Shown: positions 11,396-64,000, counted from the stretch's first letter. The stretch: DNA of 64,000 nt from an uncultured Chloroflexia bacterium (GCA_963716815.1 CAVQUM010000003.1:261320-325319), one strand, 5' to 3'. A program made the numbers and translations. Notes: generated by a model from the letters alone, not told the origin.

Positions 11396-11399
11396 GGCC

Positions 11400-12666: not shown

Positions 12667-12752
12667 GGGGCTGCACCTCCCCGCGCCCGGTCGCACGCGC
12701 AGCGTGCCGCCCCCTCGAACGCGGACTCCGCTGGTAGGGCAGACTGCTAGCG

Positions 12753-14270: not shown

Positions 14271-14322
14271 GTTCAACCGACCCCATGACGATCGACACGC
14301 ACCCCCGCGCGCCGAGGTGCCA

Positions 14323-16085: not shown

Positions 16086-16148
16086 GCGTGGCCTGCGCCT
16101 GAGCGCGCGGCCGCGACCCGTTCCAGCTCAAGGGAGACCACACCACCC

Positions 16149-16707: not shown

Positions 16708-16715
16708 CGGACATC

Positions 16716-18077: not shown

Positions 18078-18382
18078 CAGAGACACGCACACCGAACCCG
18101 GCTGCGGGCGCCGTGGGCCCGGCGGACACGGATGACATCAGCGCACTCACCTTCGACAAGGCCCTCGACGAGCTCCGTGACGTGGTCGCCCGCCTGGAGG
18201 AGGGTGGGCTGCCACTGGAGGAGTCCATCACGCTGTATGAACGCGGCGCCGCCCTGCACGAGCACTGCGGGGCGCTGCTCGACCGGGCTGAGCTGCGCGT
18301 GCAGCGTCTGGTCGACGGTGCCGGCGGAAGCGCGCCGCGCCTCGTGGACCTGCGCCCTGAAGACAGCGACGACGAGGCCTAG
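18074..18382 (+). CDS. xseB: Exodeoxyribonuclease VII small subunit
   Basis: 102 aa with 'FDKALDELRDVVARLEEGGLPLEESITLYERG'. It overlaps xseA by 4 nt. Confidence 0.9.
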   Translation: MTETRTPNPAAGAVGPADTDDISALTFDKALDELRDVVARLEEGGLPLEESITLYERGAALHEHCGALLDRAELRVQRLVDGAGGSAPRLVDLRPEDSDDEA

Positions 18383-18385
18383 GGC

Positions 18386-20366
18386 GTGGTCGCGCTACGC
18401 GAGCTTCGCGGACCGGAGGACCTCAAGGGCATCAGCCACGCCGAGGCCAGGGCGCTCTGCAGCGAGATCCGCTCGGAGATCGATCGAGACGGTGGCCAGC
18501 ACGGGTGGTCATCTGGGCAGCTCGCTGGGCGCGGTCGAGCTGACCGTCGCCCTGCACCGCATCCTCTCGAGCCCGGTGGACCGCATCGTCTGGGATACCG
18601 GCCACCAGGCCTACGCCCACAAGCTGCTCACCGGGCGACTCGACCGCTTCGATACCCTGCGCCAGCTGGGCGGCATCGGCGGCTTCCCGCGGCGCTCGGA
18701 AAGCGAGCACGACGTCATGGACGGCGGCCACGCCGGCACCGGCATCTCCATCGCGGAGGGCCTGGCCCTGGCCCGTGACGCTCGCGGCAGCGACGAGCGC
18801 ATCGCGGTGGTGGTCGGTGACGCAGCCCTCATGAGCGGCCTCTCGCTCGAGGCCCTCAACGACATCGGCCATCGCAAGACGCGCCTGCTCATCCTGCTCA
18901 ACGACAACGAGATGAGCATCAGCCCGTCGGTCGGAGCGGTCAGCGCGTATCTCTCGCGCATCAAGCTCTCCCGCCAGTGGCGCCGTTCGCGGCGCCGTTT
19001 CGACAGCGACGTGGCGCGCGTGCCGCTGATCGGCGGGTTCCTCCTGGAATGGTCCCGGCGCATCCGTCATGCGGTCGTCGACCTGAGCCAGCCGGGTCGG
19101 CTGTTCGAGGACCTGGGTGTGACCTACGTGGGTCCGGTCCCGGGCCACGACCTGGCCGTGCTCGACTCCACGCTGCGCAAGGCCTTCGAAGAAGAGGACA
19201 AGCCCATCATCGTGCACGTGCGCACGCGCAAGGGCTACGGCTACCGCCCCGCGGAAGCGGACAAGATCGGCTTCCACGGTGCCGCCCTGCCGCCCATGCC
19301 CAGCCAAACGATGGCGATGCCTTCGGTCAACGGCTCGGGTCCGTCGGACGGCGAGGCCAAGCCGCCCGCGGAGGAGCGCGCTCAGCCCAAGGGGCCAAAC
19401 TACACCGCGGTCATGGCCGACGAGCTCGTGCGCATCGCGACCGATGACCCGCGCGTCGTCGCCGTCACCGCGGGCATGCCCACCGGCACGGGCATCTCCG
19501 CCTTTGGGCGGCGCTTCCCCGAACGCACCTACGATGTGGGCATCGCCGAGCAGCACGCCATGGCCATGGCTGCCGGCCTGGCCCTTGCCGGACAGCGCCC
19601 CTTCGTCGCGCTCTACTCCACCTTCCTGCAGCGCGCCTTCGACCAGGTCGTCCACGATGTCTGCCAGAACGACACGCCGGTCGTCATCGGCATCGACCGA
19701 GCCGGCCTCGTGGGCGAGGATGGCACCAGCCACCAGGGCATGTTCATGCTCTCGGCCTTGCGTCAGCTGCCCAACCTCGTCCTGGCCGCACCACGTGACG
19801 AGCAGCAGCTGCGGCGCTTGCTGCGCACGGCCTTCGCCCAGGACCACCCCTTCGCCATCCAGTACCCGCGTGACGCCGGCTTCGACCTGCCGGCCGTGGA
19901 CCCCCGACCGCTCGAGATCGGTCGCGGCGAGGTCCTGCGCGAGGGCTCGGACATCCTCATCGTCGGCCTCGGCCCCATCATCGCGCGGGGCCAGGCCGTG
20001 GCCCACGGGCTGAGCGCGGCCGGCTGGTCAGTCGGCCTCCTCGATGCCCGCTTCGTGCGGCCCCTCGACCGGGCGCTCATCCTCGAGCAGGCGCGCGACG
20101 TACAGCTCATCGTCACGCTCGAGGAGAGCGTCCTGCCCGGCGGTTTCGGCTCGGCCGTGCTGGAGGCACTGGCCGACAGCGAGGAGCGGTCGTCATTCGC
20201 CCCGGTCAAGCGCATCGGCCTGCCCGACGGGAAGTTCGTCGACCACGGCTCGGTCTCCGACCTGCGTGCGCTCGTTCGCCTCGACGAGGCCGGGATCTCG
20301 GCCCAGGTCGAGGCAGCCATCGCCGTGCACGGGCTCTCGCCTCGTGGCGCTCCCGTCGAAGCCTGA
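18386..20366 (+). CDS. dxs: 1-deoxy-D-xylulose-5-phosphate synthase
   Basis: Contains 'PEDLKGISHAE...EIRSEI' then 'IETVASTGGHLGSSLGAVELTVALH', plus 'VVGDAALMSG' and 'IAEQHAMAMAAG'. One frame break lies near 18480. Confidence 0.92.
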
Positions 20367-34225: not shown

Positions 34226-34303
34226 CGGGGCGTGGCGCAGCTTGGTTAGCGCACTTGACTGGGGGTCAAGAGGTCGCTGGTTCGAATCCAGTCGCCCCGA
34301 CCA
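34226..34303 (+). tRNA. tRNA-Pro (anticodon GGG), CCA encoded
   Basis: The cloverleaf can be read directly. The acceptor is CGGGGCG/CGCCCCG, the anticodon stem CTTGA/TCAAG with loop CTGGGGG, the T-loop GGTTCGAATCC, and the 3' end is A-CCA. Confidence 0.92.
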
Positions 34304-48981: not shown

Positions 48982-50622
48982 ATGAGCGTCCTCGCCGACC
49001 GCGATATCCGTACCGCCATGCAGGAAGGGCGCATCCGCATCGATCCCTTCGACGAGGACTGTCTGCAGCCATCCTCGGTCGACCTCCACCTCGACCGCGA
49101 GTTCCGCGTCTTCCACAACTACCGCTACGCACGCATCGACCCACGCGTGGAGATGCCCGACCTGACCGAGCCGACCGAGGTCGACGGTGACGAGCCGTTC
49201 ATCCTGCATCCGGGCGAGTTCGTGCTGGGCCAGACGCTCGAATGGGTCGAACTGCCCGACGACCTCGTGGCTCGCCTGGAGGGCAAGGCACTCGCGCTCG
49301 ACACGCCGGTGCCAACGCCCAGCGGCTGGCGCAGGATCGGTGACCTGGAGATCGGCGACTACGTCTTCCACGAGAGCGGACGGCCGATCCCGATCATCGA
49401 TGCTACGGATGTGATGCTGGACCGCCCGTGCTATGAGGTCATCTTCTCCGATGGCCAGCGCGTCATCGCCGACGCCTCGCACCAGTGGGTCACCATCGAC
49501 AAGAGCGGACGTCGTCGCGGACGCCAGGTCCGCACGGTTCGCACGACCGCCGAGATCGCCGAATCGGTACGTCGCCAGGGCGAGATGAATCACCACATCC
49601 CTCTCGCGTCGCCAGTGGAGTACCCGCATCGTCTTGACCTGCCGATCGAGCCGTACACCCTCGGTGCCTGGCTCGGCGACGGGACCACGACGACGGCCGA
49701 GATCACCTGCTGTGACGAGGGTGTCCTCGAGCGCATCAGCGGGGACGGCTACACCGTCAGGCGCACTGGCTATGGCACACGCTTGTACCGCATCGGTGGG
49801 ACCGGCAGCACGAGAGACCTGCTGAGCGGTCGATACACTCGCAACGGCTCGCTCTCGAGTGAGCTCCGCAACCTCGGACTGATGAACGGTAAGTTCGTGC
49901 CTCGGCCATACCTGGAGGCGAGCGTCGCGCAGCGGCAGGCACTTCTCGAAGGCCTGATGGACACCGACGGCTTCGTGGACGACGTCGCCGGCCGCTGCGA
50001 ATTCGTCAGCACCAACGAGAGCCTCGCGAACGGCGTGCTGGAGCTTGCCGCGAGCCTCGGCTTCAGGCCGATCAAGTCCGAAGGCCGAGCGATGCTCGAT
50101 GGAGTCGACCACGGCCTCAAGTACCGTGTGAAGTTCACGCCGGATCGACCGGTCTTCGGACTCCAGCGGAAGGTGGCCCGCCAGCGGCCGAGCGACTCGC
50201 GGTTCCACCGCTTCCGGGCGATCGACGCGGTGCGTAAGGTCGCCTCGGTTCCCGTTCGCTGCATCCAAGTGGCCTCGCCCGATGGCGTCTTCCTCGTCTC
50301 GAAGTCGTTCATCCCGACGCACAACAGCTCCCTCGGACGGCTGGGACTGCTCATCCACTCGACCGCGGGGTACGTGGATCCAGGCTGGAAGGGCAACCTC
50401 ACGCTCGAGCTCTCGAACGTGGCCAACCTGCCCATCGCGCTCTACTTCGGGATGCGCATCGGCCAGATCTCGTTCTTCGAGATGTCCAGCCCGGTCGAGC
50501 GGCCATACGGCAGCAAGGGCCTGGGCTCGCGCTACCAGGGACAGCGTTCACCCACCGCCAGCGGCGCCTACCGCGACTTCGAGGACAGCCGCCGCACGAC
50601 CAAGGGAGGCCCGCGCAGCTGA
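48982..50622 (+). CDS. dcd: dCTP deaminase interrupted by an intein
   Basis: The N-extein is '[23 protein letters not shown]...[30 protein letters not shown]'. The C-extein is '[31 protein letters not shown]...'. The exteins join to the conserved G(K/R)SSLGRLG active-site motif. Confidence 0.9.
49288..50325 (+). mobile_element. Intein (346 aa) with a LAGLIDADG homing-endonuclease domain; Ala1 and a class 3 (WCT) signature
   Basis: Block A is '[26 protein letters not shown]'. Block B is '[13 protein letters not shown]'. The LAGLIDADG motifs are '[10 protein letters not shown]' and '[12 protein letters not shown]'. Block F is 'PVRCIQV' and block G is 'FIPTHN|S'. Confidence 0.88.
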
Positions 50623-51624: not shown

Positions 51625-52291
51625 TCAGGGTGTCGCCACCAGCAGTGGCTCGATGAGCTCGGCCGCCGTCTCGCGATCGACCGGGCCGTAGCGCAGGTGG
51701 GCGATCTCGCCCTCGGCGTCGATGAAGACGTGCGTCGGCAACCCGAAGCCACCGTACGTCTCGAAGACCGCGCCGGTGGCGTCGAAGCCGATGGTGTACG
51801 GGAGTGAGTAGCGCTCGGCATACGCCGCCACGTCCGTCGCTGTCGTCTCCTGCACGCTGATCGCGATCATCTCCAGGCCCTCGTCGTGGTAGGTCTGGTA
51901 CGCCTCGCGCAGCACTGGCGTCTCCTCCTGGCAGGGCGGGCACCAGGTAGCGAAGAAGCTCAGCCAGACGGGGCTGCCACGGTGCTCCGCGAGGCTCACG
52001 ACCGCGCCCTCGAGGTCACGCAATGGCTGCGTCTCGCCGTCGACCTCGCCTTCCAGCTCCGGCGCCAGCTGGCCCAGCGGCGAGGCCCGTCGTCCGTTCG
52101 CCGGTCTGGTAGAAGCCCGAGCCGGGCGACACGGGCGCTGGCTCGGGCACGCTGATGGGCGTCGTCAGCAGGGCCAGCCCACCAGCGGCCACGACCAGGA
52201 CGACCACGAGGATCACCAGATGGCGCAGGGTGAACGGACCGATGACCTTCTTCTGCCAGCGTGACGGCGGCGGGGTCGGAGCGTCGGTCAA
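51625..52291 (-). CDS. TlpA/ResA-like thiol:disulfide oxidoreductase (membrane-anchored thioredoxin fold)
   Basis: A TTG start overlaps the ccdA stop. The TM is 'LVILVVVLVVAAGGLALL', a frame break lies near 52078, and the redox motif is 'WLSFFATWCPPCQEE'. Confidence 0.78.
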
Positions 52292-53115
52292 ATCGGAGTC
52301 TCGATCCAGGTGCTGAAGTCGAGCCAGGCGAACTGCTGGGCGAACCAGCCGAGCCAGTCGAAGATGAGCGCCAGGCCGAGCAGGACGATGAGCGCGCCGC
52401 CGGCGATCTCGATGTAGCGGCTGTAGCGCACGAGCGGGCGGGTGATGAGCGGCGCCCGGTCGACCGCGAGCGCGACCACGATGAATGGGATGCCCAGTCC
52501 GAGCGAGTAGGCGACGAGCAGGCCGACGACCTGAGGGCTTGCACCCACCGCGGCCATCATCAGGATGCTGCCCAGGACGGGGCCGATGCAGGGCGTCCAG
52601 CCGACGGCGAAGACGCTGCCGAGGACGAAGCCGCCGAGGAGCCCGCCGCGCCGCTGGCCCGGATCGCCGCCACCGAAGCGCTCGAGTGGCTTCCACGATC
52701 GCGCCAGCGTGCGGAACTGGAACACGCCCATGAGGTTGAGGCCCAGGATCACCAGGATGACGCCGCCGATCTGTCGCAGCAGCGGCATGTGCTCGCGCAG
52801 CGGGCTGGCTGCCTGGTAGATGAGGATGCCCACGACCGTGAAGACGAGCGTGAAGCCGAGCACGAAGGCGAAGGCGTTGGGAATGGCTCGCCAACCGCTC
52901 GCGCGTGGAGGCACGGGTGTCCGTGGGGCCGTGCCGAAACCGCCGTCGACCGCGATCTCACCGACCGCAGCCAGGTTCGTGGCGCCCAGGCCGGCGGGTT
53001 TGGGCGCGGCCACGATGCCAAGCTGGCCCAGGTAGGCCGGCACCACCGGCAGCACGCACGGGGACAGGAAGCTGAGCAGGCCGGCCAGGAGTGCGGCGCC
53101 GAGGGTGACGTCCAC
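52288..53115 (-). CDS. ccdA: Cytochrome c biogenesis protein CcdA (DsbD family)
   Basis: 275 aa with 'FLSPCVLPVVPAYLG' and 'FAVGWTPCIGPVLGSIL'. Confidence 0.88.
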   Translation of the reverse strand: MDVTLGAALLAGLLSFLSPCVLPVVPAYLGQLGIVAAPKPAGLGATNLAAVGEIAVDGGFGTAPRTPVPPRASGWRAIPNAFAFVLGFTLVFTVVGILIYQAASPLREHMPLLRQIGGVILVILGLNLMGVFQFRTLARSWKPLERFGGGDPGQRRGGLLGGFVLGSVFAVGWTPCIGPVLGSILMMAAVGASPQVVGLLVAYSLGLGIPFIVVALAVDRAPLITRPLVRYSRYIEIAGGALIVLLGLALIFDWLGWFAQQFAWLDFSTWIETPI

Positions 53116-53131
53116 GCTCAGGTGCGCCGCA

Positions 53132-53416
53132 TCACTGCGGCGAGGGGAGGGCGTGGGCCAGGAACTCGCGCACCTGACGGCCGCTCGTCACGAGTTCGCT
53201 CTCGACTTCGCCGATGGCGAAGACCGGGATGCGGCGGCGGTAGCGCGACTCCAGCTCAGGGTCGGTGGAGATGTCGACGCGGACCACCTCGACCGGCGGC
53301 AGGCCGGCCCGGGCACGCTCGGCCAGTTCGTCCCGCAGCAGCAGCTCTGCGTCGTCGCACAGGTGGCAGCCAGGACGGCGGTAGATCGTCAGCGTCGGGC
53401 GCACGGTGTCGTTCAT
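53132..53416 (-). CDS. Glutaredoxin-like protein (DUF836 type)
   Basis: 94 aa with 'TIYRRPGCHLCDDA' and 'IPVFAIG'. Confidence 0.7.
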   Translation of the reverse strand: MNDTVRPTLTIYRRPGCHLCDDAELLLRDELAERARAGLPPVEVVRVDISTDPELESRYRRRIPVFAIGEVESELVTSGRQVREFLAHALPSPQ

Positions 53417-53456
53417 GTCAGCGCTGATTCTACGGTGCGCTACGATTCGAGCCCGC

Positions 53457-53532
53457 GCCCCCGTAGCTCAGTGGATAGAGCGGCAGCGTCCTAAGCTGCG
53501 CGTCGGCGGTTCGAATCCGTCCGGGGGCGCCA
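53457..53532 (+). tRNA. tRNA-Arg (anticodon CCT), CCA encoded
   Basis: The acceptor is GCCCCCG/CGGGGGC, the D-arm GTAGCTCAGTGGATAGAGC, the anticodon stem GCAGC/GCTGC with loop GTCCTAA, the T-arm GGCGGTTCGAATCCGTC, and the 3' end is G-CCA. Confidence 0.92.
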
Positions 53533-53605
53533 GCCCATGCCTAACCCATGAGCATGTGCGAAGCGACGGCCGTGTCAAGCCAGGTGTCGATGCTGTTCTT
53601 CTGCC
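53533..53605. repeat. Segment X, copy A: about 73 nt directly 3' of tRNA-Arg, repeated at 57607..57678
   Basis: My hand alignment gives roughly three-quarters identity (gcccatgcctaacccatgagcatgtgcgaagcg... against gctcatacccaacctatgagctgtgcgaggcg...). A conserved 7-bp hairpin lies at its start. Confidence 0.6.
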
Positions 53606-53642
53606 GTCGGCCGCTGGCCGGACTCGGCGCGCTACGGTCAGG

Positions 53643-53853
53643 GAAATCGGAAAAGACTCCTCGCCTCGACCCCTCGTACACATAGAGGTCGGTGCCACGT
53701 GCTTCACTAGCACGGACGCAGACCGGTTCGGGAGAGGAGGGGTATGGATCCGGAGGTCGTGGTGCGAGCGCAACACGGTGACGAGGCCGCGTTCGAGTCG
53801 ATCTCCGTCGCCGGTTACCCGCGCCTCTATCGCATCGCCTACGGCATCCTACG
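53643..53853. repeat. Segment Y, copy A: duplicate of the ECF-sigma upstream region plus its first 37 codons (partner 59773..59983)
   Basis: About 210 nt align by eye with only scattered mismatches, from gaaatcggaaaagactcct to ggcatcct. Similarity stops abruptly at 53853/59983. Confidence 0.8.
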
Positions 53854-53854
53854 A
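53744..53854 (+). pseudogene. 5' fragment of an ECF sigma factor gene (first 37 codons only)
   Basis: 'MDPEVVVRAQHGDEAAFESISVAGYPRLYRIAYGILR' against the intact 'MDREVVVRAQHGDEAAFESITVAAYPRLYRIAYGILR' at 59874. The sequence after it is unrelated and Arg-rich. Confidence 0.75.
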
Positions 53855-53986
53855 CCTCTCGATCGCGTCGGATGGATCGGCCTGGATGGTCGTGCGTCGG
53901 AAGTCCGGGCCGGACGCGACCAGGCCCGACGGCATCTACATCCTCGATCCGGATCGCGCGACGGGTCAGCGCACCGGAGGATGACG

Positions 53987-54805
53987 ATGAAGCGCGTGAT
54001 CACGATGATGCTCCTCGCCATGGCCGTGCTCGCGCCCACGACGACGGCTCAGGACGCGTCCGCGGTCCCAGGCGCCGACGCGGCCACCTCCATACCGGTG
54101 CGCTTCGCGGTCGCCCCGACCGACCCCGCCGACGTCGACGAGCAGCCGTACTCCTTCGCTGAGCTCCAGGAGCGTGCCGACCGCGTCCACCGATCGCTCG
54201 TCGATGCGGGCTACCCGAACGTGGCCACCTCGACCCACATCACCGGCGGCGGGGTCATCCCGGTCTCGGTCCAGCAGATGGGCGATCTCCCGGCCGACCC
54301 CGACGGCGTCCTCGCCTTCGTGCCAGAGGACCTGCGAGCCGATGTCGAGCTCGATGTGACCGTGGCCCCGCCGCGTCCGTCGGCCGAGCCCGGGGCGTGG
54401 GGTCCGCTCGCGGTCGTCTATCGACCGCAGGGCTTCGGTCCGGGTGTCGGGCTGGGTCCGGTGACGCTGCGCATCGGCGACCGTTGTGTCTGGCTTGAGT
54501 CGGCGAACGGGAAGTACGCCACGACCATCGTGTGGGAAGGCAACCACGTCGACTGGCGACCGACCAACCGGCGCATCATCTTCACCGACCGCAAGGGCCG
54601 GACCGTAAGCCTCTCCGATAGGGATCGCATCGAGGGCGGCGGCGTCAGCATCTGGCGGCCCGTGGGCGAGGGGAGCTCTGATCAGCCGCGGGCAGACTCG
54701 ATCCTGGAGGCCATGACCGCCGTGCCCGACGACGATTGGCTACAGGAGCCGCACGCATCGTGTCCGGAGTCACTCTTCTTCGTGACCGAGCTGGAGGTCG
54801 AGTGA
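53987..54805 (+). CDS. Secreted hypothetical protein
   Basis: RBS ggagg lies 6 nt upstream. The signal peptide is 'MKRVITMMLLAMAVLAPTTTAQ', and the 272-aa frame is intact. Confidence 0.55.
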   Translation: MKRVITMMLLAMAVLAPTTTAQDASAVPGADAATSIPVRFAVAPTDPADVDEQPYSFAELQERADRVHRSLVDAGYPNVATSTHITGGGVIPVSVQQMGDLPADPDGVLAFVPEDLRADVELDVTVAPPRPSAEPGAWGPLAVVYRPQGFGPGVGLGPVTLRIGDRCVWLESANGKYATTIVWEGNHVDWRPTNRRIIFTDRKGRTVSLSDRDRIEGGGVSIWRPVGEGSSDQPRADSILEAMTAVPDDDWLQEPHASCPESLFFVTELEVE

Positions 54806-55887
54806 TGCGGCTCTCGATGACCATCGAGTCACACCGGCGCCTTCTCCGCGTCGCTGCGACGACCGCCCTGGTCGTGGCATCCGTGATCGGCGGAAGCGCG
54901 GCCCTCGCCGCGATCGGGCCCGAGCCGACCGAGCCGACCCTGGCGGGCACCTGGTCAAGATCCCGGACGCCCCGTGGGGCACGGTGTTCCCGGCCGCGGC
55001 CTTCACCGGAGAGGAGATGCTCGTCGTCGACCTCGAGAGCGGTCGCACGCCGAACCTACCACCCGGAGAACCGGACCTGGACCCCCACGAGACGGCACCG
55101 AAGGCGTTCGACGGCCTCAGCCCGTCGGTCTGGACCGGCACGGAGCTGCTGGTGTTCGACCGCTACAAGGCCGGCCGTTCCTACGCCTACGACCCCGAGG
55201 CGCGGAGCTGGCGCCGGCTCGCCCCCTCGCCGCTCAAGGAGCGGTGGCATGCGGAGTGGGCTGGCGGGCAGGTCGTGGTCCGCGGACGCACGAAGCTCGA
55301 ATGGGCGGCGTACGACGTGGCGGCCGATACATGGCGGTCGCTGCCGGCCCCGCCCGGCGCCCATCGGTTGTGGAGCGTGCACTGGACCGGCGACACGCTG
55401 CTCGCCGTGGCGGGTGGATACGGGGAGCGCCTTCCCCATGTGGTCGCACTGGACCTCGATACCGATATCTGGGGAAAGCCGATGAAGGGCCCAGCGGACG
55501 GGGCCCCGCGGAACCCGAGTGGATTGGCGACCAGCTCGTCTTCGTCTTCGGGTGGCCGTGGGACGACGAGCCGGTCGCCGACGCGACCTTCGACCTAGCA
55601 AGCGGCGAGTGGACCCTCGTGGACTTCGACTGTCCGATCTTGACCGGCCACGCGTCTTCGACTGGCGAGCTCTTGGTCAGCAGCCACTTCGCCCTCGATC
55701 CGGACACCGGTGTCTGTCAGGCCTTGCCCGACCGTGACCTGTGGGCGGCCTTCACCGAGGACGATGATCGGAGCTGGATCCTCAACCTCTGGACCGGCGA
55801 CCAGTTGCTGTTCTGGTCGGGGCGAACGAGGACACCAGCCCGCCCAAGACCGACGGACTCGCCTTCAGGATCGGCGTGATCCAGTGA
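54805..55887 (+). CDS. Membrane-anchored Kelch/beta-propeller-like repeat protein (paralog of 63086..64000)
   Basis: The ATG overlaps the upstream stop. The TM is 'VAATTALVVASVIGGSAALAA'. It contains 'IPDAPWGTVFPAAAF', 'WTGTELLVFD' and 'YAYDPEARSWRRLAPSPL'. About 3 frame breaks lie near 54950, 55505 and 55825. Confidence 0.5.
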
Positions 55888-55910
55888 TGAAACAGACGAG
55901 GAGGGCGAGT

Positions 55911-57510
55911 ATGGGTCTCGCACTGGCGACTTCCGCGTTGATCATGGCGTCGACGCCCGCCCTCGCCGGTGGGGGCGCGTGGTCCGCCGCGGGCGGCATC
56001 GACGAGTGCGTCGACGCAGGCGCGGAGTTCTTCACCGGTGACCTCCAAGGGGCCAGAGCACGACGTTCTGCTTCACGATGGCGCCGGGGGCGAGGGCCGC
56101 GAACTCCACCTACTTCATGTCCTTCCCTGACACCCGACCGGCATCTGCGCGAGTGATGGCCGCGAACGGCTGCTACCTGGGCGTCGCGATCCCGCAGTGG
56201 GAAGCGAAACGGCGACTCGTCGTCCGCGCTGCCGAGGGCAAGCGAAGGGTCAACGACTACGGCCTGCCCGAGAGGTACGACGGCGAGTTCAGGACGGCGC
56301 GGGCGCGCGTCGACTGCGCACGGGCTGCCAGTGCACCGCCTTCGATCCCGGCCACCCTCCCCGGGTCCGCGGTCGCGGCCGACGAGGCTCCGCTCGATCT
56401 CCTTTCGAAGCTGGAGACCGAGGAGGTCGAGCCTGGCGTGCTTCGCATCGTCTCGGACGGGCACCGTGACCTTTCCGGAGCGACCGCGGCCGATGCGCCC
56501 GAGACCTACGCGGAATACCTCGATACCCACGTCGCGCGCAACCTGGTCGTCGGGCGCGACGGTCGTGTGTGGGTCATCGAGCCTGACCGGCTCTTCCGGC
56601 TCGGGTCGCCAACCGACATCCGATGGCCACAGCCGACCCGACATGTCTCCTTCAACGACCTGGAGGTGTCGCCGGACGGCCGCTTGTGGCGCCTGGTCCC
56701 CATTCGGCGCCTCCAGTCATTCGACGGCGAGACCTGGCGTCGGCACCTCCAGCGCCAGCTCCCGTGGAGCATCGAGATGGAGCCCGACGGCACCCTGTGG
56801 GCTACCTGGACCGAGTCGGGCGTCTGCTTCGAACCCGAGGGCTGCACACCGACCCGGTTGGGACGCCGCGACCGCGAGGGCTGGTCGGTCGTCGACATCC
56901 CGAAGCTCTACCACTACTCCGGGAGCCATCTGGCGGTCACCGGCGACGGCGAGGCCTGGACGTGCTGCAAGCACGACCCACAGAAGCACGGCCCGGGGCT
57001 GCTGCGGTTCGACGGGCGACGCTGGTACGTGGAGCAGCCAGCCACCGGTGTCGATGCGGACATGGTGCTGCGCATGGATGCCGCGGAGGACGGCACCCTC
57101 TGGCTGCGTCGTTCGACATCGGCACTCGAACGCTACCGGGATGGGGTGTGGACGGTCTTCACCGATGCTGACGGCGTCCCGCCACTCGGATACACCGGCA
57201 GTGAGCTGCAGAAGCTGGTGGCCGCGCCGGACGGAGGCGTTTGGGTCGCGCCGGCGGTGTCGACGGGTCATCCCGACGACGAGCTGCGGTGCGACGGCGT
57301 GGCCCACTTCGATGGGTCGATCTGGACCCGCTATCTCCGTGACACCTGCGTCTTCTCGATGGACGTCGCGCCGGACAGATCCTCTGGCTCCAAGCCGCCA
57401 GGGTCGACATCGAGAACATCGACTCGTACCGGCTCGGCGAGACCGTGGAGCCAGTCCAGTCCTACGCCATCAGGCCGGGAGGTGGCAAGCGCTCGGCACC
57501 CGGCGACTGA
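55911..57510 (+). CDS. Secreted protein with two-component-regulator-propeller-like repeats
   Basis: RBS aggagg. The signal peptide is 'MGLALATSALIMASTPALAGG'. The repeats include 'GRDGRVWVIEPDRLFRLG', 'SPDGRLWRLV...FDGETWRR', 'EPDGTLWATW', 'AEDGTLWLRR...YRDGVWTVF' and 'APDGGVWVAP...FDGSIWTRY'. Frame breaks lie near 56050 and 57380. Confidence 0.5.
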
Positions 57511-57535
57511 GCAGGACGAGCAGGCCAGCACGTCG

Positions 57536-57608
57536 ACCCAGCGGGTACCACGCGAGCGGGTCCGACGGTTTGCTTTCCGAGCCCCCGAGTCCGTCCGGGG
57601 GCGCCAGC
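57536..57608. repeat. Right-end segment plus orphan tRNA-Arg 3' end, copy B
   Basis: 57590..57608 (tccgtccgggggcgccagc) is identical to 53516..53534. 57536..57589 aligns with 59692..59743 (acccagcgGgtaccaCgcGagcgg...ggtttgcTttccgAgcccc). Confidence 0.75.
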
Positions 57609-57678
57609 TCATACCCAACCTATGAGCTGTGCGAGGCGTCGGTCGTGTCAAGCCTGGTGCGGATGCGGTCTCCTCGGG
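57607..57678. repeat. Segment X, copy B
   Basis: See 53533..53605. It starts with the perfect hairpin gctcata-cccaacc-tatgagc. Confidence 0.6.
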
Positions 57679-57680
57679 AC

Positions 57681-57708
57681 TTGACGAGCGTAGCAACAAC
57701 TATATCGT
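57681..57708 (+). promoter_or_regulatory. Candidate sigma-70-type promoter giving a leaderless or near-leaderless transcript
   Basis: TTGACG (57681), a 16-nt spacer, then TATCGT (57703). The ATG at 57716 lies 7 nt after the -10 hexamer. This stretch is the most AT-rich in the neighbourhood. Confidence 0.4.
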
Positions 57709-57715
57709 TATCGCA

Positions 57716-58416
57716 ATGGTTGATACTACGCCTCGACCCATGGAGCGCTACCTGACGACGGCACAAGCCGCCAAGCTGCTGGGCGTTCACAGCCGCGAGT
57801 CCGTGCGCTGATCGCGAGTGGCGAGTTGCGTGCGACGAAAGCTGGACACGACTGGAGCGTCATGCGCTCGGACGTCGAGGCACGCGTCGATCGCGACGCC
57901 CCAGGAGGGCGACCCCTATCTCCCGCCTCGGCGTGGGGACTGTTCGAGCTGGCCGACGGTCGCGTCCCCGGTTGGCTGGACCGCCAACAGCGCTGGCGGG
58001 TATCGAAGTTCATCCCCCGCCTCCGTTCCGGTGATCTCAGTGGTCGCTTGGTTCGACGCGCTGTGCGTCGGCCGTTCCACGTCCATCCCGGGGTGATGGA
58101 ACGACTTCGTACGGACAGCGCGCTCATGCTGACCGGCACCTCGGTAAGTGGTCCGCTCCGACTCGGACTCACCGGCGGACCAGACAGTGTCGAGGCCTAC
58201 GTCAGCGAGCGTGATGTCGAGGACGTCGTGCGGCGCTACTTCCTGGAGCCAGCCGACGACGATGCCAACGTCCTCCTGCGCGTCGTCCCGGACCTCGGCT
58301 CATCCTGGCTGTCCCGTGAGGTCGCGCCATCCGCAGCCGTGGCACTCGACCTGCTGGAACACCCGGACCCACGAGCCCGCCAGGCCGGGCGTGATCTGTT
58401 GCGAGCCAAGCCGTGA
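57716..58416 (+). CDS. HTH (excisionase/MerR-like) DNA-binding protein with a C-terminal domain; candidate AbiEi/MenA-like antitoxin
   Basis: Contains 'YLTTAQAAKLLGVHSRESVRALIASGELRATKAGHDWSVMRSDVEARV', with a frame break near 57800. An approximately 170-aa C-terminal domain follows. It overlaps the next gene by 4 nt (GTGA). Confidence 0.55.
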
Positions 58417-59150
58417 CGGATGTCACCGCGCTGCATCCAGTCGACCAGCAGCAGGCTGCCGTCTGGCGGCTGGCGAAGGAGGTGGCGTCGGCGTTCGCCG
58501 GGTTGCCGTTCGTCCTGATCGGCGGCCTGATGGTCCAGCTGCTCGAGGCCGAACGCGGAGTTGTCAGCGGCTTCGCGACCGGCGACATGGATGTCGTCCT
58601 CGACGTCCGCCCTCTAACGGGTGCGACAGCACGTGCCGCAGCCGCGTCGGTGGATGCCGGCTTCGCGCCTGAGCGATACGACGACGACCTGACCTACAGG
58701 TTCGTCCGTGGCGACGACGTCGTGGACCTGCTCGCTCCCGACCATCTCGGTGTCCGGACGAGCATCGTGACCGTGCCGCCCGCCTCGACCCTCCCTGCGC
58801 TCGGAGCCCGCCAGGCGCTGAACCGCCTCCGGACCGTCCGGGTCGATGCCGGAGACGGCGCGTTCGACTTGCCCGTGCCGTCACTGACCGGCGCCATCGT
58901 GCTCAAGGCCAGGGTCGTGGAGAGCGCGGCTGGGCGAGCGAGCCTTCCGAAGCACGAGCGCGACCTAGCCCGACTCCTGGCACTCGTCGAGGACCCGGAC
59001 ACTGAGGCGGCGGGGCTGACCCACAAGGAGCGTGGCTACTTGCGCGCACGTGGCGACATGGCTGACACCCGCCATCGAGCGTGGCGCGGGATCGAGAACC
59101 CACTTGACGGGGTCGCCGCCCTCCGCATCCTCGCGGCCGACCGAGCCTGA
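58413..59150 (+). CDS. Pol-beta-fold nucleotidyltransferase; candidate AbiEii/MenT-like toxin
   Basis: 245 aa, intact. It contains 'FVLIGGLMVQLL...TGDMDVVLD' (G-G ... D-x-D), 'VVDLLAP', 'AIVLKARV' and 'KHERDLARLLAL'. Confidence 0.55.
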   Translation: MTDVTALHPVDQQQAAVWRLAKEVASAFAGLPFVLIGGLMVQLLEAERGVVSGFATGDMDVVLDVRPLTGATARAAAASVDAGFAPERYDDDLTYRFVRGDDVVDLLAPDHLGVRTSIVTVPPASTLPALGARQALNRLRTVRVDAGDGAFDLPVPSLTGAIVLKARVVESAAGRASLPKHERDLARLLALVEDPDTEAAGLTHKERGYLRARGDMADTRHRAWRGIENPLDGVAALRILAADRA

Positions 59151-59277
59151 TCTGGCCTAAGGGCTGATAGCGGCCGAACCTCGACGCGGCCCTCCATGCC
59201 GTAGTGGTTGCGTTCGTCGTCATGCGCATCGCGCCCAGCGGCATGATCGCCGTGATGTCGGTGCTCTTGCTGTTCGC

Positions 59278-59394
59278 ATGATGGCCGGCGTCCTGCGCAT
59301 CGCCATGGTCGTCCTGATGCCTGAGGTCTTCTTGCCGGTCGTGTTCCTGATCATCCACTTCGTCGTGCTCATCATCATCCTCGGCGTGCCTTAG
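59278..59394 (+). CDS. Candidate 38-aa hydrophobic peptide
   Basis: 'MMAGVLRIAMVVLMPEVFLPVVFLIIHFVVLIIILGVP*'. By hand count, wobble positions are G/C in 36 of 38 codons, against about 24 of 38 for the codon-aligned antisense His/Asp-rich ORF 58903..59619. Confidence 0.3.
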   Translation: MMAGVLRIAMVVLMPEVFLPVVFLIIHFVVLIIILGVP

Positions 59395-59691
59395 ATCGCC
59401 GTGCCCGTGGTGATGATCGTACGCGATCCACGTGGTCCCGGTGCCCGTGCTTGTCGCGCCCGTTCTCGTCATAGCCTGCTCTACCGGATCGGCAGCAGCA
59501 GGGCCGGCGCCAGCAGCGTTGGCAGTAGCGGTTGTGGTACCGGCAGCGTCGTCGCCGCCAACCACATCATCGGCGGCGGTGGCTTCGTCATCGCTGTCAC
59601 CAGCAGAAGTCGGCGACATGAGAGTCTGGATAGACCCTCACTGGACGACCGGTTCCGGCGACCTGCGGAGCCGATCTGACGGCTACTCGCT

Positions 59692-59761
59692 ACCCAGCGC
59701 GTACCAAGCCAGCGGTCGGGTGGTTTGCCTTCCGCGCCCCTTCATCCGTCCGGGGGCGCCA
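59692..59761. repeat. Right-end segment plus orphan tRNA-Arg 3' end, copy C
   Basis: 59744..59761 (atccgtccgggggcgcca) is identical to 53515..53532. The upstream 52 nt align with 57536..57589. Confidence 0.75.
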
Positions 59762-59772
59762 TGGCCACGCAC

Positions 59773-59983
59773 GAAATCGGAAAAGACTCCTGGACTCAAC
59801 CCCTCGTGCACATAGAGGTCGGCCGGGCGTGCTTCACTAGCATGGAGACAGACCGGTTCGCAACAGGAGGGGTATGGATCGGGAGGTCGTGGTGCGAGCG
59901 CAACACGGTGACGAGGCCGCATTCGAGTCGATCACCGTCGCTGCCTACCCGCGCCTCTACCGCATCGCCTATGGCATCCTGCG
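59773..59983. repeat. Segment Y, copy C: native ECF-sigma upstream region plus 5' coding end
   Basis: See 53643..53853. Confidence 0.8.
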
Positions 59984-60434
59984 CGAGCACGGTGCCGCCG
60001 ACGATGCTGCCCAGACCGCGCTCGTGGACATCTGGCGCCGCCTCCCACGACTGCGTGGCCCTGAGAAGTTCGACGGTTGGTCGTACCGGCTGCTGGTCCG
60101 CATCTGCTACGCCGAGGCCAAGCGCCGGCCGAAGTGGCTGCCCGGCGAAGCCATCACGCGCTCGGTCGAGCCTCGCGCCGCCGATCCGTTCGGCACCGTG
60201 CTCGACCAGGACCAGCTGGAGCGGGCGTTCGGGGCCCTGACCGTCGACCACCGCGCGGTCATCGTCCTGCGCTACCTGCTGGACCTGCCCCTCGAGCAAG
60301 TGGCGCAGGCGCTCGACATCCCCGTCGGCACGGTCGGCTCGCGACTCCATCGTGCACTCGAGGTCCTGCGCGCGAGCGTCGAGGCTGGCGAACGCACCGC
60401 ACCGCTCGAAGCCAACTCGGAGGGACGCTCATGA
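59874..60434 (+). CDS. ECF-type RNA polymerase sigma-70 family factor
   Basis: 186 aa, intact, with RBS aggagggg. Region 2 is 'AAFESITVAAYPRLYRIAYGIL...AQTALVDIWRRL' and region 4 is 'VIVLRYLLDLPLEQVAQALDIPVGTVGSRLHRA'. Confidence 0.88.
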   Translation: MDREVVVRAQHGDEAAFESITVAAYPRLYRIAYGILREHGAADDAAQTALVDIWRRLPRLRGPEKFDGWSYRLLVRICYAEAKRRPKWLPGEAITRSVEPRAADPFGTVLDQDQLERAFGALTVDHRAVIVLRYLLDLPLEQVAQALDIPVGTVGSRLHRALEVLRASVEAGERTAPLEANSEGRS

Positions 60435-61111
60435 GCGACGAGCTGTTCACCCCGTTCGTGCAGTCCTGGCTCCGCTCGAGCGACCTGGTGCCACCGGAGC
60501 CCCTCGACCGAGCCGACCGCGTGATGGCTCGCGTCCGGTCCACGCGCCAGCTCGGCCGCCACTGGCCACCGGAGGTCTTGGTGACCGAGGTCAAGCCGCC
60601 CACCGACGGAGCCGACTTCGGCGGCCTCCCCGCTCGGGCTCGGCAGGTCCGCTGGCTGCCGAGCCGGTTCTCGGTCGTCATCGCGATGCTCGTCGCGGTG
60701 GTGGCACTGCTGACCGCCAACCTGCTCCTGCTCGACCCGGCACCGATCGAGCAGCGAAGCGTCGTCCCACTCCCGGGAGCCGAGGAATCCGCCGCGCCGG
60801 CCAAGGCCATCGGCTGGATCACCCAACCCGTTCGGCTCGAAGCGGACGCGCTGCGACTCCACCTCGGCGACGCCGTCGCGACGGGCGCAGCCGAAGCCTC
60901 GGTCGAGGGCTCTGGAGACCAGGCTCGCCGGCGAGAGCTGGCAGTCGACTGGCGTGAGAACGACACGTGGTACCAGCTGCAGTTGTACCTCGCTGCCGAC
61001 GACACGCACTGGTGGATCAGCGAGCTCATCACCACCGACGGCACCGAGGCCGGCAACACCGTCACCTTCGATACCGCGTCCCTGCCTCGGATCCGCTCGG
61101 AGACGCGCTGA
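60431..61111 (+). CDS. Single-pass membrane protein translationally coupled to the ECF sigma (candidate anti-sigma factor); it may continue into the next ORF
   Basis: ATGA overlap with the sigma stop. The cytoplasmic N-terminus is 'MSDELFTPFVQSWL' and the TM is 'FSVVIAMLVAVVALLTANLLLL', followed by an extracytoplasmic domain. There is no zf-HC2 motif. Confidence 0.55.
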   Translation: MSDELFTPFVQSWLRSSDLVPPEPLDRADRVMARVRSTRQLGRHWPPEVLVTEVKPPTDGADFGGLPARARQVRWLPSRFSVVIAMLVAVVALLTANLLLLDPAPIEQRSVVPLPGAEESAAPAKAIGWITQPVRLEADALRLHLGDAVATGAAEASVEGSGDQARRRELAVDWRENDTWYQLQLYLAADDTHWWISELITTDGTEAGNTVTFDTASLPRIRSETR

Positions 61112-61192
61112 TCGACGATCTTCGACTCGTGGGCACGCCCGACACCGACAGCACCCTGACCGGGCCGGTCGACCTGGAGTTCGACGGATTCG

Positions 61193-63095
61193 GTGCTCCG
61201 GGCCTTCGAACCCGGCACCGGTGTCGATCGCGTGGCGACGGTGGTCGAGCGCGTGACCGCGACGGGCGACACCGTCGCGCCAGGGGTGCTGCGGGTCGTC
61301 GACGACGGCACGAGCCACGGCCTAGAGAGCGTGTCGCACGTAGCCGTGACCCCCGATGGCCGCGTCTGGGCGGCCACGCCGACCCATCTCTACGAGCTCG
61401 GCGTCGAGGGCGGTCTGCGCGCCATCGACGGTGGACCACAGCGCATCGCCGGCCTCGAGGGCGGCGCGGACGGTCGGCTGCTGGTACCTGCCGATGGTGG
61501 CGGATGGTTGGTCACCGACGGCAAGACCTGGCCGAGCTCGGCCAGGCCGGGGTCGGAGGCGTACAGCGATGCGGCGCTCTCCGCAGATGGCGCGCTCTGG
61601 GGCGTCACCGATGATCCCGTCATGTATGTCGATCGAGCCACCGAGGATGGTGTCTCGACCGCGTTCGGGATGGAGTTCGCCGACCCCTCGGTCGCGGAGC
61701 TCGAGGACAGCCCGAGCGATCGTTCGGTCCTCGCGCTCGCCGACGGCTCGGTGTGGGTCTCGACCGGCCTCGGAGCAGGCCTCGTGCGCTTCGATGGGGC
61801 GGACCCGGAGGCCGGCGGCGTGGGGCACCAGCCGCTCGGCGCCTACGAGGTGGGGCAGCGCGTCCTTGACATCGCGGGCAACGACGACGGGGTGGTCTGG
61901 GCACTCCTCGAGGACTCCGCCGGACAGTATCTCGGGCGTTTCGACGGCTCGACGTGGTCGCTGCATGCCTGGGACGACGTGGTCGCCGGGCTGCCCGTCT
62001 CCACGGCCGGCGGCCGCGGGCGCTCCTGGACGTTCCCGGACGAGATCGGGGCCGTGCTGTCCGATGGTGCAGTGGTCGTCGCGCCCATCGACGTGTACGC
62101 CGACAGCGGCGTATCCGCGCTGCTCCGGTACGACGGCGACGCCTCGACGGTGGCGTTCGACCTTGGGCTCGACGCTGCCGCCGCGACGCCCGATGGTCGC
62201 GCCTGGGCAGCCAGCTGGTCCGGCCTGCACCTGCTCGACCCGGCCCTCTGGCCCGGCGTGGCCGCCGCGACCGGGGCGCCCGACGACCACGTGGCTCCCG
62301 GTCGGCTCGTGCTCGATCTGCGGCCCAGCCGTCGGCTCGAACAAGCCGTGGCCTACCTCCAGCGCCAGACCGAGCAGACCGACCTCGCGCTCGACCCGGA
62401 GGCATTCCTCCGACTGGCTCGTGACCCGAGTGACCACTGGCGCGAGCGCTACCCGTTCCTGCAGGAGGCTCCGGAGGGCAACAGCCTGGAAGGCTTCCTC
62501 GCCTCCGGGACCTACGAGGTGTCGGCGGACATTGCCGCCGAGGACCTCGTCACGCAGATGCTCGAGGAGTGGGACGAACAGATGTCGTGGTACGTCGCGG
62601 AGGCAGACCGGAGAGGTATCGACTTCTACGACGCACTGGTGATCGCCAGTCTCGTCGAGCGCCAGGCCCGCGACGACTCCGACCGCGCGAGGATCGCCGG
62701 CGTCTACTGGAACCGGCTCGACCCCGAGGTCTACGGCGACCAGACCGGTGGCCTGTTGAACGCTGACCCGGCTGTCGTCTACGCCACCGAATTCGATGGC
62801 GCTCGAGGATCTGTCGGTCGCGGACTGGGACGAGCATCGGTTCTGGGAACTGCTCGGCGTCGATGACTACAGCGCCGTCGAGGTCGACCCTGAGTACGCC
62901 TCCTTCCACACCTACCGCTCCACGGGGCTGCCCGACTGGCCCATCGCCACCCCGAGCGCGGCCTCGATGGCGGCGGCGCTGGACCCGGACACCCGCGACG
63001 GCAACCTCTTCTTCTTCGCCTGTCCCGGCTCTGCCACGCACGAATTCGCGCAGACCTTCGAGCAGCACTTGGAGAACACCGCGCGATGCGAGTGA
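61193..63095 (+). CDS. Propeller-repeat domain fused to a C-terminal YceG (MltG-like) domain
   Basis: The repeats include 'TPDGRVWAAT', 'SADGALWGVT', 'LADGSVWVST...VRFDG', 'NDDGVVWALL...GRFDGSTWS' and 'TPDGRAWAAS'. Then come 'LEGFLASGTYEV', 'IASLVERQAR', 'IAGVYWNRL', 'LNADPAVVYA' and 'YRSTGLPDWPI'. A frame break lies near 62790 (gaattcgatg where gaatcgatg is expected). Confidence 0.6.
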
Positions 63096-64000
63096 TCTTG
63101 GCGTTGGCGCTCTCGCTGGTGCTGTCGTCTGCGGCCGTCACGCAGGCGGCAGACCGGCCCACGCCGAACGAGCTGGCCATCTTCTCCGACGACGTCCAGC
63201 GGCAGGTGATGCCCTGGCTCGAACAGCAACCCGAGTACGCAGGTATGTGGCTCGACCGCGACGCAGTCCAGATCGTCGTGAGCCTGACCGACGCGGACCC
63301 CGAGATCATCGCCGGCCTCGATGCCCGGGTCCCCGGTGGCGGCGACGGCTGGCGCCTGGAGGTGCCCGCCTACACCTGGAAGCAACTGAGCCGGGCGACG
63401 CACGAGGCACACAGGATCAGGTCCGGGTTGCCCGGCGCCGGGCGGCTGGAGTCGTCCTGGGTCGATGTCGAGGAGAACCGGGTCGGCCTGCGCTTCGAGC
63501 GCGGCGCCATCAAGCGCGCAGACATGGCGTCGGCCGAACGCAAGTGGGAGCGGGCGCTGGGCGTGCCAAGCCACATCTGGCGCGAGGAGATCGCGCCGTC
63601 GACACCGCACGCCGGCGAGTGGGAAAAGCTGCCCGACGCCCCGTGGGGCGCAGCCAACGCCGTCGCGCTGGCCGTCGATGGGGACATGCTCGTGCTCGAG
63701 CCCGAGACAGGCCGGGTCCTCCGCTACGACACGGACGTCCGCACGTGGAAGCGCGGAGCACGGGCACCGAAGCGCTTCGACTACTGGGCCCCGTGGGTCT
63801 GGACCGGCACGGAGCTGGTCGTGCTCGACGGCCGTCGATCCGCGCGTGTGTTCGCGTACGACCAGGCGGAGGATCACTGGCGTGGACTCCCGCGATCACC
63901 CCTTGACGGGGCGGACCTCGCGGTCTGGGCTGATGGGCGAGTGGTCGTGGCGGACATCGAGACGGAGAGCGAGGTCGACATCGAGCGCTCGCTGGCTGTG
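63086..64000 (+). CDS. Secreted protein with a Kelch/propeller-like C-terminal region; the 3' end lies outside the window
   Basis: ATG at 63086. I checked by hand that 305 codons are open to the window edge. The signal peptide is 'MRVILALALSLVLSSAAVTQA'. 'LPDAPWGAANAVALAV', 'WTGTELVVLD' and 'FAYDQAEDHWRGLPRSPL' parallel 54805..55887. Confidence 0.6.
   Translation, partial: MRVILALALSLVLSSAAVTQAADRPTPNELAIFSDDVQRQVMPWLEQQPEYAGMWLDRDAVQIVVSLTDADPEIIAGLDARVPGGGDGWRLEVPAYTWKQLSRATHEAHRIRSGLPGAGRLESSWVDVEENRVGLRFERGAIKRADMASAERKWERALGVPSHIWREEIAPSTPHAGEWEKLPDAPWGAANAVALAVDGDMLVLEPETGRVLRYDTDVRTWKRGARAPKRFDYWAPWVWTGTELVVLDGRRSARVFAYDQAEDHWRGLPRSPLDGADLAVWADGRVVVADIETESEVDIERSLAV

Follow-up and report, generated by a model that had tools for sequence, protein, structure and literature searches.

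Recombinase-less integrative units stacked at a tRNA-Arg(CCT) gene of an uncultured Chloroflexia bacterium, likely through large serine recombinase attachment sites

RESULTS

Three exact copies of the tRNA-Arg(CCT) 3' end bound tandem units

We analysed a 64-kb stretch of genomic DNA from an uncultured Chloroflexia bacterium (GCA_963716815.1, CAVQUM010000003.1:261320-325319; hereafter the window) and consider it likely that the locus downstream of its tRNA-Arg(CCT) gene is a tandem array of recombinase-less integrative units, built at the tRNA 3' end by the attachment-site (att) chemistry of a large serine recombinase (LSR). The LSR family concerned is widespread in Limnocylindria. The tRNA gene (53457-53532, + strand) is intact, as judged by ARAGORN and by an Rfam tRNA score of 60.5 bits. 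Its last 17 nt, TCCGTCCGGGGGCGCCA, occur exactly three times in the window, always on the + strand; no further match with up to two mismatches is present within the 64 kb, and three matches were reached in 0 of 100 dinucleotide-preserving shuffles. We call these repeats cores A, B, and C, the DNA between A and B unit 1, and the DNA from B to C unit 2. Exact identity extends beyond the 17-nt core to 19 nt for copy B (57590-57608) and to 18 nt for copy C (59744-59761), just as an earlier note on the bare sequence had described. The direct repeats bound inserted DNA and leave the tRNA whole. That note had read them as the footprint of site-specific integration into the tRNA, occurring in tandem, and our analysis agrees: the repeats are of the att type and are stacked at the tRNA 3' end. 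The tRNA-Pro gene of the window (34226-34303) has no repeats of its 3' end, so there is no similar array there.

Self-comparison of the window recovered all three pairs of related flanks that had been proposed. Downstream of cores A and B, 53512-53596 and 57586-57669 share 84.7% identity over 85 nt; the homology is real, although it runs ~64 nt past the core and not the ~73 nt first suggested. Upstream of cores B and C, 57536-57606 and 59692-59761 share 81.7% identity over 71 nt, which carries the homology ~54 nt upstream of the core, in line with the ~52 nt first noted. The third pair, Y' (53643-53853) and Y (59773-59983), is 88.6% identical over 211 nt. All three cores in the window are exact, although the arms around them diverge by 15-18%. 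We refer to the module that follows a core as the left end of the unit (Lend) and to the module that precedes a core as its right end (Rend).

We detected no recombinase or transposase gene in units 1 and 2 using Pfam on called open reading frames (ORFs), tblastn with LSR queries, and a crude motif scan for tyrosine recombinases. The absence of recombinases and transposases had been noted before and stands. The accompanying statement that no excisionase-only gene is present needs amending: the product of 57740-58416 in unit 2, once one apparent frameshift is repaired, matches the excisionase-family model TIGR01764 with E = 3e-9.

The right-end module encodes the tail of a serine recombinase

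In an alignment of all non-tRNA core copies, a conserved motif stands out ~30 nt upstream of them. Core and Rend, taken together on the minus strand, read ...APPDG(L/R)GG..K..D(P/A)L(A/G)WYA.., with a stop a few codons later; a second Rend family reads WRPRTDSNLQQQRSVLDWYLEVG and then stops. Across 28 distinct junctions, most of the variation falls on codon position 3, with an entropy of 0.77 vs. 0.23 and 0.43 at positions 1 and 2, a figure to which the anchoring pattern adds some bias. The translation of Rend_B from the window, LAPPDGLGGSESKPSDPLAWY, is 81% identical over 21 aa to the tail of protein P0127.

At several loci, a minus-strand ORF to the right of a core encodes the C-terminal region of a recombinase, with its zinc ribbon and a coiled coil, and continues into the core; homologues of these ORFs carry Recombinase and Zn_ribbon_recom domains. 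Beside the tRNA, such an ORF ends in ...APPDGLEPPTRSLGRCRSIH and a stop, reading antisense tRNA sequence, and LSR remnants with this ending abut the tRNA in L048, L076, L082, and other loci; across a non-tRNA core, the ending is ...DPLAWYAAR and a stop. The core lies inside the 3' end of a recombinase gene in L081, L004, L005, L109, and L110; the arrangement is seen in two short contigs. In L081, ORFs with the Resolvase and Recombinase domains overlap with one frameshift, and the 3' end of the gene holds a non-tRNA core.

A full HMMER search uncovered intact relatives of ~500 aa (P0137, P0140, P0141, and P0157). Resolvase, Recombinase, and Zn_ribbon_recom are all matched by P0137, P0140, and P0157, although P0140 does not reach the gathering score for the zinc ribbon; in P0141, the domains matched are Resolvase and Zn_ribbon_recom. 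The C-terminal regions of P0140, P0141, and P0157 contain RPFF, RAFF, or RPFY, then APP(D/E)G, and close with a DPLAWW-, DLIWY-, or EKLAAFL-type tail. The Rend peptide forms the C-terminus of these intact proteins. P0137, P0140, and P0157, which come from other sources, have the three-domain architecture of LSRs (~450-600 aa); the window keeps only the last ~21-25 codons of such a gene, as Rend. We conclude that the core is an att site embedded in the 3' end of an LSR gene, with Rend representing the last ~25 codons of that gene; Rend_B and Rend_C are alike because both encode these codons.

A 4,983-nt metagenome contig, L110, contains an intact 496-aa serine recombinase with its natural tail and a core variant, TCCCTCCGGGGGCGCTA; the gene is preceded by a single-stranded DNA-binding protein (SSB) gene and small ORFs. 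It may be part of an autonomous element of the same family that targets a slightly different tRNA sequence.

The left-end module is conserved for about 60 nt

Lend is a conserved module of ~60 nt that runs from the core through GCCCAACC to TGTCAAG. Our set comprises 26 distinct copies, drawn from genomes and from 21 metagenome contigs that an exact pattern scan picked out. They follow either the tRNA or a tail-core junction of either Rend family and are unrelated to each other beyond ~60 nt. A recombinase body follows none of the 26, and core plus Lend found no match in viral contigs. We take Lend to be the putative recombinase-proximal att arm of a family of non-autonomous elements. Other candidate identities were discarded: as coding sequence, Lend has no codon periodicity (entropy 1.19, 1.07, and 0.89 at positions 1, 2, and 3); as structured RNA, it has neither an Rfam match nor a consensus fold in RNAalifold; and as a minus-strand sigma-70 promoter (TTGACA-N16-xAxxxT), it was not flagged by a promoter scan.

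Units are distributed among relatives like cassettes

We fetched 80 loci from species-representative genomes by way of the CcdA-like gene upstream of the tRNA. The closest of them belong to metagenome-assembled genomes of Limnocylindria (Chloroflexota), and the source of the window is itself a Limnocylindria bacterium. The order CcdA-glutaredoxin-tRNA-Arg is conserved among the relatives, and in eight of nine close relatives the nucleotide homology to the window runs up to the last base of the tRNA (53532) and no further. Two to four core copies lie downstream of the tRNA in 15 of the 80 loci, and a further locus, L082, has five. Genes found between cores in the relatives encode nitrile hydratase, molybdopterin enzymes, argininosuccinate synthase, extracytoplasmic function (ECF) sigma factors, Kelch proteins, a chloride channel, and a subtilase.

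Presence and absence are polymorphic: synteny breaks at the core in eight relatives, and unit 2 alone is common to the window and L004. There, unit 2 (86.4% nucleotide identity, vs. 80.4% for the flanks) lies between two slightly degenerate cores with 1-2 mismatches and has other neighbours. L055 reads tRNA-Lend_A-Y-ECF sigma gene, is colinear with 51641-53853 and 59764-63996 of the window, and lacks the intervening 5.9 kb (53854-59763), with breakpoints in Y/Y' and not at the core. The earlier note had called for a search of related genomes for an empty junction, and its proposal would have been refuted had related strains carried the same three copies with no empty site anywhere; L055, which lacks the block, and L004, with its different neighbours, do not refute it.

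The distribution of units is cassette-like. The third unit of L082 and the second unit of a metagenome contig, L097, have in common an S4-domain cassette with 96% identity across 643 nt; its homology begins at the core, and the left neighbours differ. A nitroreductase-like cassette common to L082 and L072 shows 84.5% identity, vs. 71% for the flanking core genes. A shared cassette in L072 has lost its core. The five cores of L082 (reverse complement, 10049-20331) delimit units of 0.7-2 kb, some of which consist of one gene, such as a nitroreductase-like cassette of 1.6 kb and an S4-domain cassette of 0.7 kb. The tRNA of this locus is adjoined by a truncated recombinase, and the last unit holds an IS110-family transposase. 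L015 and L036 were considered as an occupied/empty pair and rejected, as their shared flank is only ~60 nt of a recombinase-stub module, with no longer homology.

An ECF sigma gene start is duplicated across the array

The earlier note had also remarked that unit 1 carries a copy of the native chromosomal flank, Y. The copy is borne out by the Y'/Y comparison above, but the relatives lend no support to the label "native flank": for seven of the nine close ones, no Y-related sequence was found in the ~9.5 kb that follow the tRNA. An ECF sigma homologue lies 5-6 kb from the tRNA in L004 and L007, and in L004 a homologous ECF sigma gene is located inside the array, behind a recombinase remnant. 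Y is probably part of a variable ECF-sigma unit rather than a fixed native flank.

Identity between the window and L055 is 97-98% from the tRNA to ~53620 and 87-98% across Y', vs. ~80% in the flanking genes, which points to a separate and more recent history of this tract. A single crossover point within the Y of L055 was rejected on account of the mosaic pattern. Three histories of Y' are possible: two related ECF-sigma units were stacked and one was later truncated at codon 37; the block was lost in L055 through recombination between Y' and Y; or it was gained in the window in a Campbell-type event. A fourth, degenerate core upstream of Y' (53592-53642, compared with core C and its flank) was also rejected, as 788 of 2,000 shuffles reached its score.

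Upstream of the sigma start codon, a GGAAAAG...CGT(A/G) stretch is kept in both copies (53643-53700 in Y' and 59773-59830 in Y). Judged by its sequence, it could be an autoregulated promoter of the ECF type. If this were true of Y', the genes of unit 1 would be under the control of the ECF sigma factor encoded at 59874-60434.

A proposed mechanism and its alternatives

We infer the following mechanism from the intact relatives. In autonomous members, the attP core would duplicate the 17 nt that end the tRNA and would be situated inside the 3' end of the recombinase gene; the gene would run antisense to the tRNA, with the core encoding APPDG and ~25 further codons (...DPLAWYA and a stop) lying beyond the core. 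Integration at the tRNA would leave the recombinase-proximal arm, Lend, beside the tRNA and would carry the last codons of the recombinase to the distal end, as Rend, beside the displaced core copy. Repeated integration would produce the order core-unit-core-unit-core, and the empty joins expected of such an array would be the tRNA followed by Lend_B or the tRNA followed by TGGCCACGCAC-Y. By analogy with these relatives, an LSR may have catalysed the insertions in the window, and units 1 and 2 may still be mobilisable. Most likely they are non-autonomous cassettes that were moved or shuffled in trans by an LSR encoded elsewhere; that they are in-situ deletion derivatives is less likely.

Several observations weigh against this account. 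LSRs normally do not recombine attP with attL or attR, which leaves tandem stacking by an LSR without an explanation. No recombinase gene lies within the 64-kb window, and the case for catalysis here comes from the relatives only. Most recombinase copies in the genome loci of the relatives are truncated, and the system may be largely fossil. The origin and role of Lend are uncertain, as it lacks codon periodicity and has weak minus-strand similarity to LSR 3' ends. Simple core-to-core insertion does not predict the Y'/Y duplication, and homologous recombination involving Y' and Y could equally account for the difference between the window and L055. The three copies of Y form a mosaic and are roughly equally distant from one another (89-92%).

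The alternative that fares best, which we nevertheless think unlikely, is that autonomous serine-recombinase elements integrated successively and that each then lost its recombinase by deletion, leaving immobile fossils. Truncated recombinase stubs of many lengths adjoin the tRNA in dozens of relatives, as this history would have it, and the imperfect cores of L004 and the loss of the core from a shared cassette in L072 are likewise in its favour. However, Lend ends near ~60 nt in 26 independent copies and is conserved without codon periodicity, unlike random deletion stubs; one and the same recombinase-less cassette is found at different array positions with homology from the core onward; and the window cores have stayed exact while their arms differ by 15-18%.

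We give less credence again to the idea that the structure owes its form chiefly to related ECF-sigma units that underwent homologous recombination or segmental duplication, for example in a Campbell-type insertion or deletion through the 211-bp Y/Y' repeat, and not to two site-specific insertions. Such an origin would suit the single 5.9-kb block, bounded by the Y'/Y direct repeat, by which the window and L055 differ, as well as the raised identity of the two from the tRNA through Y' relative to the flanking genes. It leaves unexplained cores B and C and their conserved arms, which recur in many unrelated arrays, and the three Y copies offer no single crossover point; recombination would cover the Y anomaly on top of the array, but not the array itself.

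It is very improbable that a tyrosine integrase, its gene now decayed or located beyond the window, formed these units as classical tRNA islands. A 17-nt repeat of a tRNA 3' end is typical of such islands, which mostly use tyrosine integrases, with serine-recombinase cases described as rare (PMC4383910, PMC3218068). Yet a crude test for the tyrosine-recombinase box-II motif was negative in any frame of the window and of 110 fetched loci, Phage_integrase is not among the 25 Pfam families listed of the 56 found in 59 island ORFs, and the att core falls within a serine-recombinase gene at several loci. An assembly artefact is scarcely credible: the assembly is indel-prone, with at least six apparent frameshifts in housekeeping genes between 46 and 51 kb, but the repeat copies differ by 11-18% outside the core and hence are neither collapsed nor duplicated reads, and in L004, as an independent case, two cores flank unit 2 at this locus.

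Gene content of the units and their surroundings

Both units retain both att arms, and their features are listed in Table 1.

Table 1. Coordinates of the cores, units, end modules, and genes of the array
Feature	Position (nt)	Strand	Description
Core copy A	53516-53532	+	Last 17 nt of tRNA-Arg(CCT); attL-side core
Core copy B	57590-57606	+	With Rend_B and Lend_B, attP-like junction of units 1 and 2
Core copy C	59745-59761	+	attR-side core
Unit 1	53533-57606		Lend_A, Y', lipoprotein-like ORF, Kelch gene, beta-propeller gene, Rend_B; both att arms kept
Lend_A (left-end module A)	53533-53642		53533-53596 homologous to Lend_B; the 110 nt are 97% identical to the post-tRNA sequence of L055
Y'	53643-53853	+	ECF sigma gene up to codon 37, with the region preceding it; homology stops abruptly at 53853
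Secreted/lipoprotein-like ORF, unit 1	53987-54805	+	272 aa, no family match
Kelch-repeat gene, unit 1	54805-55879	+	Membrane/signal anchor, apparent frameshifts
Secreted beta-propeller gene, unit 1	55911-57510	+	Weak Reg_prop match, apparent frameshifts
Rend_B (right-end module B)	57536-57589	-	With core B reads LAPPDGLGGSESKPSDPLAWY, LSR C-terminal tail
Unit 2	57607-59761		Lend_B, promoter-like site, helix-turn-helix (HTH) gene, overlapping nucleotidyltransferase gene, Rend_C; both att arms kept
Lend_B (left-end module B)	57607-57680		Orthologous module in L004 76% identical over 147 nt
HTH gene, unit 2	57740-58416	+	~226 aa, excisionase-family HTH (HTH_17), apparent frameshift near 57808
Predicted nucleotidyltransferase, unit 2	58413-59150	+	245 aa, distantly AbiEii-like
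Rend_C (right-end module C)	59692-59744	-	Reads ...RPLAWYALGSE and a stop; same recombinase tail, 1-nt frame slip vs. core
Y	59773-59983	+	Beginning of the intact ECF sigma gene (59874-60434), with the region preceding it

The Kelch gene of unit 1 encodes a product with 43% aa identity to that of a paralogue downstream of core C (63683-63949), and the propeller gene has a distant paralogue at 61193-62866 (27.5% aa identity). In unit 2, a promoter scan placed a sigma-70-like match at 57681-57708, ahead of the HTH gene. Intact homologues of the HTH product are 213-233 aa long, match HTH_17/Rv2175c_wHTH, and are encoded beside the same partner gene, and the HTH-nucleotidyltransferase pair is conserved in other contexts. 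The HTH protein looks more like a partner of the adjacent nucleotidyltransferase than a directionality factor. The latter has 143 homologues, two distant ones of which carry PF08843 and several of which are named "predicted nucleotidyltransferase" at source; the protein itself has no direct match in Pfam, PADLOC, or NCBIfam, and no PADLOC defence model matched unit 2. In a comparison with AbiE-type (type IV) toxin-antitoxin systems, PF08843 occurs only in the distant homologues of the nucleotidyltransferase, and the upstream gene encodes an HTH protein of the excisionase family.

Between the nucleotidyltransferase gene and Rend_C (59150-59690), the + strand is strongly T-rich, with an AT skew down to -0.37. 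Competing ORFs in this region are a His/Asp-rich one of 238 aa (- strand, 58903-59619) and short hydrophobic + strand peptides such as MAGVLRIAMVVLMPEVFLPVVFLIIHFVVLIIILGVP; L004 has a hydrophobic + strand ORF at the matching position.

Beyond core C, the ECF sigma gene (59874-60434) is followed by anti-sigma, propeller/YceG fusion, and Kelch genes, colinear with L055. The fusion gene (61193-62866) joins a beta-propeller region to a YceG/MltG-like domain that is 55% identical at the aa level to part of a gene at 15215-15781 of the same window, and the fusion is kept in L055 (69% aa identity).

The apparent frameshifts in the genes of units 1 and 2 were rejected as evidence of decay. At least six comparable ones occur in conserved housekeeping genes (~46625, 47554, 48720, 48980, 50725, and 50930), where, for several relatives, one intact ORF corresponds to two or three frames of the window, indicating either frequent indel errors in the assembly or real frameshifts. 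Since housekeeping genes carry similar lesions, those in the unit genes cannot be read as pseudogenisation. The divergence of 11-18% between repeat copies outside the core means that they are not an assembly duplicate.

Upstream of the array, the dCTP deaminase (dcd) gene contains a 1,034-bp in-frame insertion (49288-50321) relative to L001, L004-L007, and L055. The insertion is an intein with LAGLIDADG homing-endonuclease motifs, and the DCD gene of L081 also has a LAGLIDADG_3 match. ARAGORN calls a 97-nt tRNA-Ser(GGA) at 50101-50197 (- strand); this call is probably a false positive, because the intein ORF encloses it and the relatives that were scanned yielded no tRNA-Ser call.

DISCUSSION

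Tandem units that lack a recombinase at an attachment site are already known from the staphylococcal cassette chromosome (SCC), its recombinase-less derivatives (psiSCC), and cis-mobilizable elements (CIMEs). The closest analogue of the array described here is the composite SCC/psiSCC island. psiSCC elements measure 2.6-13 kb, lack ccr, are flanked by direct repeats, and lie downstream of orfX (PMC9430635). As with SCC, the enzymes here would be large serine recombinases, P0140 having weak similarity to CcrB, XisF, and CcrA; insertion occurs at the 3' end of a conserved gene and restores that gene; and the units are in tandem, some of them recombinase-less, bounded by repeats of the target 3' end (in the window, L082, and others). 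Unlike SCC, the target is a tRNA and not rlmH/orfX, and the recombinase is no Ccr orthologue (P0140 scores 66 bits against a CcrB cutoff of 900). The att core here lies inside the coding 3' end of the recombinase, such that integration would exchange the C-terminal tail. The host belongs to an uncultured Chloroflexota class, the cargo consists of ordinary metabolic, regulatory, and secreted-protein genes, and very small cassettes are abundant.

The array also resembles CIMEs and the tandem accretion seen with ICESt1/ICESt3, in which att-flanked units without recombination genes sit in tandem with relatives at one site. Mobilisation in trans is the standard explanation for CIMEs. Cases of tandem actinomycete integrative and conjugative elements (AICEs) at tRNA-Arg and tRNA-Lys genes are on record, as are triple direct repeats (PMC3218068). 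CIMEs and AICEs have tyrosine integrases and a conjugative origin, whereas here a serine recombinase is implicated and no conjugation genes were seen. Integration by a serine recombinase into the 3' part of a tRNA gene is described as rare, the listed cases being Mycobacterium AICEs in tRNA-Leu and phage phiRSM1 in tRNA-Ser (PMC3218068). These cases involve other tRNAs and another host phylum, and the phiRSM1 enzyme is small and resolvase-like; arrays of recombinase-less cassettes, or an att core inside the recombinase ORF, are not reported for those elements in the text available to us (PMC3218068).

Arrays of short, often single-gene cassettes between conserved recombination sites, as in L082, are reminiscent of integrons and of clusters of attC sites lacking integron integrases (CALINs), and like CALINs, many of the arrays have no functional recombinase. 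Unlike integrons, they show no IntI (no tyrosine-recombinase motif was found) and no attC-type hairpin, Lend having no RNAalifold consensus structure; cassettes lie in either orientation, and a tRNA gene serves as the primary site. An attachment core inside the recombinase ORF, with integration altering the gene, is known from archaeal integrases of the Sulfolobus spindle-shaped virus (SSV) type. Those are tyrosine recombinases whose gene is split into two large parts, whereas here the last ~25 codons of a serine recombinase would be exchanged.

A more far-reaching proposal links two claims: that Limnocylindria have an integron-like LSR cassette system at tRNA-Arg(CCT), and that recombination is coupled to a swap of the enzyme's C-terminal tail. 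Taken together we regard them as tentative and, on present evidence, doubtful. If they were true, the system would capture short recombinase-less cassettes, defined only by a left module of ~60 nt and a right one of ~55 nt, and would stack and shuffle them in trans, and each recombination would replace the tail ...DPLAWYA, with its stop, by antisense-tRNA sequence or by a neighbour's tail. This would amount to a built-in switch that couples the form of the enzyme to its integration state.

For the window by itself, the outcome is more limited: the island array is explained, save for one duplication. The combination of a serine recombinase with a tRNA gene, the classic target almost always of tyrosine integrases, is described as rare, and the unusual att layout, with the core in the coding 3' end of the recombinase, accounts for the conserved right terminus, which is protein-coding. 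The family may also offer a supply of compact att sites and recombinases for genome engineering. Cassettes with ordinary genes (ECF-sigma regulons, nitrile hydratase, nitroreductase-like genes, and a toxin-antitoxin-like pair) are spread across an abundant uncultured class of soil and freshwater, and if they are still mobilised in trans, they would provide these genomes, at a single hotspot, with a main route of gene flux.

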